A DNA stretch of 64,000 nt from Pseudomonadota bacterium (lineage in GTDB: Bacteria; Pseudomonadota; Gammaproteobacteria; Burkholderiales; SG8-39), in assembly GCA_018241645.1 (NCBI GenBank), contig JAFEDL010000029.1, positions 36,389 to 100,388 on the forward strand, given 5' to 3'. The notes beneath the pieces were generated by a model that was given only the letters and a program-made list of their open reading frames with translations, searched no databases and was not told where the DNA came from. The translations under genes were made by a program, and so were the position numbers. Below, in pieces: positions 35,485 to 37,001 of this stretch (position 1 is the first letter of the stretch; every line of letters begins with the position of its first letter).

Positions 35485-37001
35485 GAACGGACGCCCTTCA
35501 TGGTCCCGCGCATGTAACAGCGGTCCTCCGGCACGTCGTCGTACTCTCCCCGCAGGAAGGCATCGCAGTCATCCAGCGTTTCGGCCAGCGGCACAGAAGC
35601 GCCGCTGATGCCGGTGTGCTGGGCGACGACATGAAACGGCTGGGTCAGGTAGCGCTGCAGCTTGCGCGCGCGCAGGACGACGACGCGATCGGCTTCGGCA
35701 AGCTCTTCCATGCCGAGCATCATGATGATGTCCTCCAGTTCGCTATAGCGCGCAAAATGCGCGCGCACCCCTTCGGCAATGGCGTAGTGGCGGTCGCCGA
35801 GGAAATGCCGGTCCATCATCTTGCTGGTGGACAGCAGGGGATCGATCGCAGGATAGATGCCTTTGCTCGCCTGGCCGCGCGACAGGACGACCGTGGTATC
35901 GAGATGCCCGAGGATCGCGCTCACCGCCGGGTCGGTCATGTCGTCTGCCGGTACGTAGATTGCCTGGACCGAGGTGATATCGCCGCTCGTCGTGGAGACG
36001 ATGCGGTCCTGCAAGTCCGCCACTTCGGTCAACAGCGTGGGTTGATACCCGACGGTCGCCGGCATGCGCCCGAGCAGCCCCGAAATTTCGCTGCCGGCCT
36101 GGACGAAGCGGAACACGTTGTCCATCAGCAGCAGGACTTCCTTGTGCAGGGTATCGCGCAGGTACTCGGCATAGGTGAGCGCGGTCATGCCAACGCGGAA
36201 CCGCACACCCGGCGACTCGTCCATCTGGCCGAACACCATCAGCGTCTGCGGCATGACGCCCGCATCCTGCATCTCATGCCATAACTCGTGGCCCTCGCGG
36301 ATGCGCTCGCCGACGCCCGCGAACACCGACACGCCTTTGTGCAAGGCGACCACTGCGTGCATGAACTCCATGATCAGCACCGTCTTGCCCACACCGGCGC
36401 CGCCAAAGAGCCCCGTCTTGCCGCCCCGGATGAAAGGCGCCAGAAGATCCACGACCTTGACGCCGGTTTCGAGGATTCCTTTGGCGCTGACAGTCTCGTG
36501 AAGCGGCGCGGGGTTTGCCAGAATGCCGCGCGTTTCCTCACCGGCGAGCGGAAGCCCCCCGTCCAGGGGCTGGCCGAATATGTTCAGCAGGCGCCCGAGG
36601 CAGTGGGGCGTTACGGGCACCCGCAGCGCTGCGCCGGTATCGAACACCGGCATGCCGCGTTGCAGCCCGCTGGTGCGGTTCAGTGCAATGGCTCTAAGGC
36701 GCTGTTCGTCGAGATGCTGGTGGGCTTCGAACACATAGGCTTCATGGTCTATGCTCGTGTAGAGGGCCTGATGCAGGGGCGGCAGGCGCTCGCAGACGAT
36801 TTCCACGACGGGGCCATTGACCTCGCTGATCGTCCCGATCTGGGCGCCGCTGAGTTTCAGCCGCTTCATGGATTCGACGCGCGCGGAGAACTGGTTCAGG
36901 CAATCGACGGAGCAGAAGAAGAATCTTGTCCCGGCGTCGAGCAGACTGTGCTCGGCGGCGTGCTCGTCGATGGCCATGCCGCATACAGGGTCGATGACCA
37001 T
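35481..37001 (-). CDS. atpD: N-type F1Fo ATPase beta subunit with an in-frame N-terminal YHS/TRASH-type Cys motif domain
   Basis: Residues 1-44 read [44 protein letters not shown]. The beta core follows (Walker [26 protein letters not shown]). AAGGA RBS before ATG 37001, and none before the internal Met45. Confidence 0.9.

Follow-up and report, generated by a model that had tools for sequence, protein, structure and literature searches.

Organisation of the fused atpD gene

The stretch of DNA analysed here (the window, 64,000 nucleotides of contig JAFEDL010000029.1 from a Pseudomonadota bacterium of the SG8-39 lineage) is a copper/silver resistance island in which the operon of a rotary ATPase lies directly downstream of the cusCBA efflux genes. 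The first gene of this operon, atpD, encodes a genuine two-part protein: a YHS/TRASH domain of ~40 residues is followed by a helix and by the beta-barrel of the catalytic beta subunit. The parts of the gene, and the evidence behind each, are as follows.

37001..35481, minus strand: atpD open reading frame (ORF), 506 codons in one frame, ATG at 37001.
37011..37015, minus strand: AAGGA ribosome-binding site, 9 nt before ATG 37001 and within the 3' end of the preceding lipoprotein gene (sequence read).
36870..37001, minus strand: YHS/TRASH domain, atpD codons 1-44, putative ligands D4, C7, C30 and C34 (C-x22-C-x3-C) (Pfam PF04945, orthologue alignment, AlphaFold2 (AF2)).
36837..36869, minus strand: linker, codons 45-55, the end of a predicted long helix entering the beta-barrel (AF2; ratio of non-synonymous to synonymous change (pN/pS) 0.71).
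35481..36836, minus strand: F-type beta core with N-terminal barrel, nucleotide-binding domain (Walker A GGAGVGKT), C-terminal domain and stop codon (Pfam, NCBIfam, PDB).

A preliminary description of this DNA had proposed that the YHS/TRASH domain is fused in frame to the N-terminus of the beta subunit, and its account of the sequence proved accurate in each detail that could be checked. The fusion is borne out by the stop-free ORF, by the match to PF04945 and by the recurrence of the same architecture in many orthologues. Codons 1-44 correspond exactly to 37001-36870, from where the frame runs without interruption into the beta part; an in-frame stop lies upstream, and ATG 37001 is the first start codon after it. 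The TGA of the preceding ORF occupies 37009-37007, which places the fused start 5 nt past the preceding gene, as had been noted. Likewise, direct reading confirmed the AAGGA ahead of ATG 37001, and no purine-rich Shine-Dalgarno motif was found ahead of Met45 (GCGCGTCGAATCCATG).

It could be argued that the 44 upstream codons are untranslated, with the native protein starting at Met45, or that they stem from a local sequencing or assembly error. An ATG is indeed found at codon 45 in the window and in two close relatives. However, nearly every orthologue carries L, I, V, A or F in place of this Met; an internal start is therefore unlikely and could not be a general option. The placement of the ribosome-binding site speaks for the upstream ATG, and the same continuous ORF is found in dozens of independent assemblies, with invariant ligands and a pN/pS of 0.38 for the domain. 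An artefact of either kind is thus scarcely credible, and the YHS-beta fusion is almost certainly translated as such.

The remainder of the protein matches ATP-synt_ab_N (residues 58-123), ATP-synt_ab (180-393) and ATP-synt_VA_C (401-477) in Pfam, and scores 575.7 against TIGR01039 (cut-off 462.85). The motifs GGAGVGKT (200-207) and GERxREG (231-237) are present, invariance having been checked for all of their positions but V204, I234 and G237. Based on these signatures, the residues from ~56 on are assigned as a complete F-type beta subunit. In alignments with solved F1 beta subunits from the PDB (E 3.5e-151), query residue 51-56 pairs with residue 3-15 of the known structures; because the solved subunits begin aligning there, the ~50 N-terminal residues are a true add-on.

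The YHS/TRASH domain

On the whole protein, PF04945 matches residues 2-39 with an E-value of 6.8e-7 and 29.6 bits, 0.7 bit below the gathering score of 30.3 bits; on the N-terminal 95 amino acids alone the score rises to 33.3 bits (E 4.7e-8), above the cut-off. Comparison of homologue N-termini with this family, a check suggested in the preliminary description, revealed the extension to be widespread, all 36 of 36 orthologous N-termini matching with a best E-value of 4.1e-15. In these 36 aligned N-termini D4, P5, C7, F29, C30 and C34 are invariant, and the residues between them vary freely. C7 and C30 are separated by 22 residues, and the D-x2-C ... C-x3-C pattern of the TRASH motif (C-x19-22-C-x3-C) is present. 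A four-residue ligand set of one Asp and three Cys has been defined for the adenylyl cyclase of M. phlei, in which a YHS domain on an 8-residue linker makes the enzyme copper-activated (PMC4626032). The residues proposed as copper ligands in that cyclase are exactly those invariant in the fused beta subunits. Judging from its ligand pattern the domain probably binds metal; the term "heavy-metal sensor" is borrowed from the family and the genomic context.

The structure predicted with AF2 from the orthologue alignment is confident over residues 1-170 (predicted local distance difference test, pLDDT, 84-92). It consists of short beta-hairpins at residues 2-29 (pLDDT ~90), a single helix at 32-51 and a first barrel strand from 53; the catalytic core was poorly modelled with the shallow alignment and was left unused. 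A Foldseek search against the PDB returned no match with E below 1. The top matches, all with E > 1, were ribosomal L24e chains (root-mean-square deviation 1.9-2.3 Å over 35-41 residues) and phenol hydroxylase alpha in its YHS region. Searching PDB sequences with the 52-residue N-terminus gave no match. L24e represents the classical TRASH fold.

These results bear on an alternative in which the domain is a structural, zinc-ribbon-like element without sensing, serving assembly or stator attachment on the crown of the enzyme or tethering a partner protein. The TRASH domain of L24e holds a structural metal, and L24e chains are the best Foldseek matches, albeit non-significant ones. The rigid predicted helix 32-51 leads straight into the barrel and, going by general F1 architecture, the domain would sit where the b-delta stalk docks, in an enzyme whose operon lacks a delta gene and carries a b-delta fusion. 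The distribution of the fusion is less easily accommodated by this alternative.

Conservation, distribution and history of the fusion

Homologues were taken as the 120 best protein clusters (70-91% identity) from a collection of 5.8 billion proteins. In at least 69 of these 120 clusters the protein starts with M-x-x-D-P-(V/I)-C-G-M and contains C-x22-C-x3-C; a further five carry a truncated or displaced YHS copy, and the remainder are beta subunits of ~465 residues without the domain. Codon alignments of 19 fused genes gave pN/pS values of 0.38 for the YHS domain, 0.71 for the linker, 0.22 for the barrel and 0.14 for the core. The domain is thus under purifying selection, weaker than that on the catalytic core and stronger than that on the linker. 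The preliminary description had held that absence of the extension from every orthologue, together with a lack of purifying selection, would speak against the fusion; both the cluster counts and the pN/pS of the domain point the other way. As the same architecture recurs across orthologues, a local accident is excluded. In public annotation the fused proteins appear as plain "F0F1 ATP synthase subunit beta". A HMMER search of 1.84 billion cluster representatives with an N-terminal profile mostly returned multi-YHS repeat proteins, with fused beta subunits visible as fragments only, because the full-length proteins collapse into generic 50% clusters. An exact look-up of the beta protein of the window found no record in public assemblies.

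A genome scan with one genome per species yielded 20 fused loci (L001-L020) and 60 unfused relatives. The hosts of the fused loci comprise Burkholderiaceae, a Bordetella-like metagenome-assembled genome (MAG), Rhodocyclaceae, Dechloromonas, Gallionellaceae, Nitrosomonadales, an Oxalobacter-labelled MAG, several Gammaproteobacteria, a Hyphomicrobiaceae-labelled MAG and Binatia. Overall, fused beta subunits were found in Burkholderiales, Rhodocyclales, Nitrosomonadales, Gammaproteobacteria, Binatia and Nitrospiria (P0095 and P0113), and a cultured carrier is available in Noviherbaspirillum agri (GCA_054780595.1, L081). In this last species the gamma gene lies directly upstream of YHS-atpD (L081 9135-10010) and not at the end of the operon. 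A search of a plasmid collection gave no fused beta; one candidate from a Roseicitreum plasmid (H5), which aligned from residue 7, was discarded as unfused owing to stop codons in the upstream frame.

In a neighbour-joining tree of the beta core the proteobacterial fused genes form one clade, and the fused beta of Binatia branches close to it, beside unfused Nitrospira; the fused subunits thus form essentially one clade. The rhodocyclacean locus L021 is nested within this clade yet unfused, and the DNA alignment reveals a clean in-frame deletion of ~125 nt that removed the YHS codons and left M-D-I-A-R-L of the linker. P0075 and P0078 (MATDP|ERFLRP...) look, from their sequences, like a second, independent in-frame deletion. 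The domain is thus dispensable, which fits an add-on regulator. Conversely, a purely structural role sits poorly with at least one clean loss within the clade (L021), and with the fact that unfused sister operons of the same b-delta architecture assemble without a YHS domain.

As to the origin of the fusion, L073 has a stand-alone YHS gene for 72 residues (7765-7983) that separates cusA from an unfused atpD, and another is found upstream of atpD in L083 (7384-7593); such genes encode 69-72 residues. Their position next to atpD makes it plausible that the fused domain arose by fusion with a small adjoining YHS gene. L083 itself, on a 1-Mb metagenome contig, displays a reduced arrangement (10001-11940): YHS-atpD and atpC are followed by oxidoreductase genes, with genes for a, c, b, alpha and gamma absent within the next 10 kb, and it represents either a split operon or a remnant.

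The rotary ATPase operon and its class

The order atpD-atpC-atpQ-atpB-atpE-atpF-atpA-atpG extends from 37001 to 30705, and orthologous loci are organised alike. Downstream of atpD the operon contains the following genes.

35074..35484, minus strand: atpC (epsilon), with a 4-nt overlap with the atpD stop (Pfam ATP-synt_DE_N).
34790..35077, minus strand: atpQ (ATPase_gene1 family), probable GTG start at 35077 (PF09527, TIGR02230).
34097..34786, minus strand: atpB (subunit a), NF009954 348.7 against a cut-off of 272; Q172 pairs with E. coli aGlu219.
33824..34093, minus strand: atpE (subunit c, 89 residues), ...AMGRAISQ... and ...AMIESLAIY..., single Glu (NCBIfam, alignment).
33024..33773, minus strand: atpF (long b with delta-like C-terminus), best match alt_F1F0_F0_B; residues 167-239 match delta and b/delta models.
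31571..33037, minus strand: atpA (alpha), NF009884 681.5 against a cut-off of 554.
30705..31514, minus strand: atpG (gamma), approximate start, best match alt_F1F0_F1_gam.

The enzyme had been called an N-ATPase in the preliminary description, a name that holds in part. The N-ATPase (Dibrova et al. 2010) is a second rotary ATPase found alongside the canonical F-ATPase, and is defined by the gene order atpDCQRBEFAG, the lack of delta, the tell-tale AtpR, and a c subunit with two Glu or the full Na+ ligand set (PMC2881411). What the present operon shares with these enzymes (PMC2881411; for B. pseudomallei N1No, PMC5376962) is the atpD-atpC start, the succession of atpQ, a, c, long b, alpha and gamma, the absence of a delta gene, a b subunit with a delta-like C-terminus (249 residues, with orthologues matching Pfam OSCP), and best NCBIfam matches to the alternate F1F0 models for beta, b and gamma. 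These alt_F1F0 matches are, however, all below cut-off (beta, model alt_F1F0_F1_bet, 588 vs 752, b 137 vs 224.7, gamma 60 vs 282), whereas the generic NCBIfam models for atpD, a and alpha exceed theirs. AtpR, the stated hallmark of the N-ATPase, was not detected by Pfam or ORF scan of the 287-nt atpC-atpB interval, which holds AtpQ only; with one small gene fitting into this interval, the operon lacks AtpR. Nor does the c subunit conform, as it carries a single Glu without the Na+ ligand set and the helix-1 Glu; a Met occupies the position of I. tartaricus Gln32 in helix 1, and helix 2 reads IESLAIY, with Thr67 missing. Finally, neither the YHS domain on beta nor the location in a cus/cop island is described for N-ATPases. 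ProAD asks for two small genes in the interval from epsilon to a (PMC11738941), where the present operon has one. On these sequence features the enzyme is classified as an accessory, N-type-like, AtpR-less branch of the F-ATPases, which resembles the N-ATPase and is not a member by the published definition. The same AtpR-less branch has been called puzzling in Ferrigenium straubiae (bioRxiv 10.64898/2026.01.22.701106), and N-ATPases as such are presumed to be ATP-driven pumps and not synthases (PMC2881411, PMC11738941).

The membrane subunits were examined in the light of a further alternative, namely that the rotary enzyme itself exports Cu+ or Ag+ via a Met/Glu-lined site in the c-ring, with the YHS domain feeding or sensing the substrate. 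No rotary ATPase is known to carry a transition metal. In support of export, the c subunit combines the Met at the Gln32 position with a second Met two residues before the ion-binding Glu (AMG.../AMIES), and subunit a has Gln in place of Glu at the equivalent of E. coli aGlu219 in 26 of 29 fused operons. Still, when 66 c subunits of related loci were aligned with those of E. coli and I. tartaricus, the ion site proved the same in fused and unfused operons, and near-identical c subunits occur in Nitrosomonas, Gallionella and Nitrospira operons that have neither the fusion nor a link to metal genes. The crown is, moreover, far from the a/c interface. The export model is therefore highly improbable, and the unchanged c subunit places the innovation on the F1 head and its control, not in the transported ion.

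Two candidate co-variations with the fusion were rejected in the course of this comparison. Met residues near the c-subunit Glu are not specific to fused enzymes, as unfused operons share the site. In subunit a the Q172 codon (34271-34273) lies at R+9 in RLFGNxxxxE, within the ion half-channel. Among the loci L001-L165, Glu is retained at this position in 82 of 85 unfused operons; in the genome set the corresponding figures are Gln in 18/19 fused and Glu in 52/53 unfused operons, and L021, which has lost the YHS domain, has Glu. The larger set contains exceptions, with Glu in the fused L020, L084 and L085 and Gln in the unfused L107. The substitution is thus probably for the most part a lineage signal.

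Linkage to copper and silver efflux genes

The genes upstream of atpD, all on the same strand, are listed below; RND denotes the resistance-nodulation-division family.

39028..45122, minus strand: cusC-cusB-cusA (RND copper/silver efflux), upstream of atpD (names from translations and position).
37007..39031, minus strand: four small genes between cusA and atpD with gaps of -4 to 59 nt (Pfam, blastp paralogy), itemised in the next three lines.
38294-39031, minus strand: DsbD_TM-like gene (Pfam).
37813-38289, minus strand: DUF411/CopG-like gene (Pfam).
37312-37800 and 37007-37252, minus strand: two paralogous lipoprotein genes (blastp).

CusA, CusB and CusC were named in the window without a family scan; in related loci the orthologous proteins match Pfam ACR_tran, CusB and OEP. 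From cusB to atpA the array is tight (gaps of -14 to 59 nt), save for the 287-nt interval filled by atpQ. The window further contains a P1B Cu-ATPase with an HMBD domain (51646-49439), two CusF genes, a multicopper oxidase, an outer-membrane factor and a MerR regulator. The gene at 46731-47105 (minus strand) encodes a secreted protein of 124 residues with an extreme content of Met and His (…MAMDMEKMKAMQAQMD…MMGGMPMDGKKGEMMKHHAMMEKRMDMMQMMMEQMM…), no Pfam match and a 53% identical homologue in L012; this protein probably binds Cu(I)/Ag(I) in the periplasm.

Across loci, cusA was found upstream on the same strand in 17/21 fused versus 6/60 unfused cases (Fisher p = 3e-9, uncorrected for shared ancestry), and a CopA-type P1B Cu-ATPase within 10 kb in 14/21 versus 2/60, mostly just beyond the operon in the fused cases. 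The gap between cusA and atpD is 0-45 nt in L004, L006, L007 and L009, a 2-nt spacer separating the cusA stop from the atpD ATG in L006 (TAG-CG-ATG), and the metagenome contigs L089, L091, L094 and L099 provide further cases with gaps of 41-656 nt. Two CusA lineages are linked to fused operons, with ~78% and ~52% identity to CusA of the window. In several relatives the ATPase operon is probably co-transcribed with cusCBA. A promoter and terminator scan of 29000-46500 was uninformative on co-transcription, as it returned fewer sites than in shuffled sequences, all of them inside genes.

This strong co-occurrence with cus and copA is left unexplained by a purely structural role of the domain, which, together with its dispensability, makes that alternative unlikely. 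Another possibility is that the domain takes up Cu(I) in the cytoplasm, as an acceptor with a chaperone-like hand-off role or as a buffer in the manner of Cu-ATPase N-terminal domains or CopZ, with no control over the ATPase. P1B Cu-ATPases can indeed begin with a YHS domain, as does the CopA encoded beside the fused operon in N. agri, and the stand-alone YHS genes of L073 and L083 lie in the same kind of island. Such a role is nevertheless improbable: three sites per large complex would provide negligible buffering, the membrane-distal crown would, from F1 geometry, be ill-placed for delivery to a membrane transporter, and the model gives no reason for a fusion to beta specifically that is retained under selection.

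Some loci widen the range of contexts in which the accessory ATPases occur. The unfused L082 (6186-9918), on a conjugative Roseicitreum plasmid, follows an arginine deiminase pathway and HdeD; its epsilon and a genes are separated by two small ones. Another unfused relative, L107, adjoins a tripartite efflux system, so that the partners of these accessory enzymes seem to be stress or efflux cassettes of various kinds.

A proposed copper-sensing module on a rotary motor

In the preferred reading, to which a probability of roughly 0.45 is assigned, the enzyme would be an ATP-driven ion pump in the service of copper efflux, and the YHS domain its regulatory module for sensing Cu(I)/Ag(I). The domain would bind cytoplasmic Cu(I) or Ag(I), and metal binding would switch or tune ATP hydrolysis. 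The enzyme would act as an outward ion pump (probably of H+) that is active only under metal stress, thereby sustaining the ion-motive force for the RND pump CusCBA when respiration is compromised. The separate parts of this scheme differ in strength. Copper-responsive regulation of the ATPase, argued by analogy, is given even odds; that the ATPase energises Cus is a more tentative suggestion. Copper as the ligand is suggested by the genomic context and the M. phlei precedent.

The N-termini of F1 beta subunits lie on the membrane-distal crown. Combined with the alpha3beta3 stoichiometry, this position would give three YHS modules arranged around the docking site of the b-delta stalk, a placement that follows from F1 architecture alone. 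The scheme could be extended to a ligand-gated rotary motor, in which Cu(I) or Ag(I) on the three crown domains switches on pumping and the enzyme serves as the co-transcribed, dedicated power supply of cusCBA, although this full version is rather doubtful.

The closest precedent is the M. phlei cyclase (Linder 2015, PMC4626032), with which the fused beta shares a YHS domain containing the conserved Asp and the three conserved Cys, a short linker and a nucleotide-converting catalytic domain, and which copper turns on. In the cyclase, however, the domain is C-terminal on a homodimer, whereas here it is N-terminal on one subunit of a hetero-oligomeric rotary motor. A protein of the cyclase architecture is encoded in the window itself, ~15 kb from atpD:

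22075..21416, minus strand: cyclase-YHS protein, 219 residues, class III cyclase-like motifs by eye, C-terminal YHS domain (39.7 bits).

This agrees with the earlier observation of a second YHS fusion in the array, after the cyclase, with the cyclase part recognised from motifs by eye and giving no Pfam cyclase match. A Crp/cNMP-binding regulator (17473-18138, plus strand) and a second protein with a Guanylate_cyc domain (14109-15560, plus strand) are encoded nearby. This arrangement suggests a copper-to-cyclic AMP-to-Crp signalling arm in the island.

P1B Cu+-ATPases (CopA, with HMA, HMBD or YHS domains) provide a second parallel, as they too carry an N-terminal, cytoplasmic, Cys-based module on the polypeptide of an ATP-hydrolysing pump in a copper-resistance context, and these N-terminal metal-binding domains are generally regarded as regulatory. 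The CopA adjoining the fused operon in N. agri carries YHS and HMBD domains. The differences are that CopA is P-type rather than rotary F-type, transports the metal itself, and bears its domain near the membrane entry and not on a distal crown. The C-x19-22-C-x3-C treble-clef-like motif is also shared with archaeal CopR/CopT and with L24e; in these the domain is joined to a DNA-binding domain or, in the ribosome, stands by itself, with no enzymatic partner. CopR is regarded as a copper-sensing regulator (PMC7830388).

Several observations weigh against the preferred reading. The association statistics are inflated, since the fused beta subunits form essentially one clade. Not all fused operons lie next to efflux genes: L084 (Nitrospiria) has no cus genes in 9 kb upstream and 10 kb downstream, L020 (Binatia) shows none, with ~4.3 kb of sequence available upstream of its atpD, and L012, L018, L088, L097 and L100 are without cusA in the available sequence, a CopA-like match being present in L012, L018 and L088. 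Conversely, unfused operons can be cus-linked, as in L021 and in L030, L063, L072 and L073, the latter four forming a separate unfused group of Gallionellaceae and Nitrosomonadales. The unfused L107 (175-4021) follows an ATP-binding cassette (ABC)-type, MacAB/TolC-like tripartite pump and not one driven by proton-motive force, which weakens the step from the ATPase to force supply for the RND pump. As regards the domain, YHS/TRASH modules can be purely structural or empty, the metal of L24e being structural and the YHS domain of toluene-4-monooxygenase metal-free. Finally, the crown would be remote from the catalytic sites and from epsilon, so that an allosteric route is not obvious.

Neighbouring genes

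The ATPase operon is flanked by three paralogous small lipoprotein genes (37007-37252, 37312-37800 and 30284-30697, all on the minus strand), the products of which have a lipobox, the motif LEQRI..A....DH..(I/L)A and ..HR.. near the C-terminus, with no Pfam match. The copy directly upstream of atpD is shortened (81 residues), and in L002 (~4660-7660) about six tandem copies lie between cusA and atpD. A gene for a BNR/Sortilin/PSII_BNR (Ycf48-like) beta-propeller adjoins the operon in the window (29325-30380, minus strand), in L001 (440-1462) and in L084 (15368-16387), and is thus common to three otherwise different loci, including the cus-less nitrospirial one. Further downstream, a conserved-looking cluster at 23444-29240 (minus strand) encodes DUF3141 (685 bits), beta-CASP/metallo-beta-lactamase (MBL) hydrolase, thymidine-phosphorylase-like and phosphoribosyl-pyrophosphate (PRPP)-synthetase-like proteins, with no obvious copper link. 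A 792-codon ORF at 57707-60085 (plus strand), beside a MerR-family regulator, has an unusual codon-position composition, with a first-position GC content (GC1) of 0.86, and no Pfam match, and its frame was possibly miscalled by the crude gene finder.

Significance

Control of rotary ATPases normally falls to dedicated inhibitory subunits or peptides (epsilon, IF1, zeta) or to a redox switch in gamma. Regulation by a sensor domain that is part of the catalytic beta subunit itself would follow another principle. The preliminary description had regarded a beta subunit with a heavy-metal-type domain as undescribed, and full-text searches of the available papers agree, in that they returned nothing linking YHS/TRASH to any ATP synthase or N-ATPase subunit, nor N-ATPases to cus or copper resistance. 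The architecture will be listed by automatic domain databases; no description of it was found.

According to PMC5376962, the cellular role of N-type ATPases is largely unexplored. The conserved fusion to a copper-type sensor domain, in combination with the tight linkage to cusCBA and copA, leads to the testable hypothesis that an ATP-driven ion pump has been recruited to metal-efflux islands. If the ligand-gated motor outlined above were true, no earlier rotary ATPase would have had a small-ligand sensor built into a catalytic subunit, and the AtpR-less N-type branch would gain its first defined physiological role. The fusion is also relevant to the question of how metal-resistance islands, often mobile ones, come to carry an energy supply of their own.

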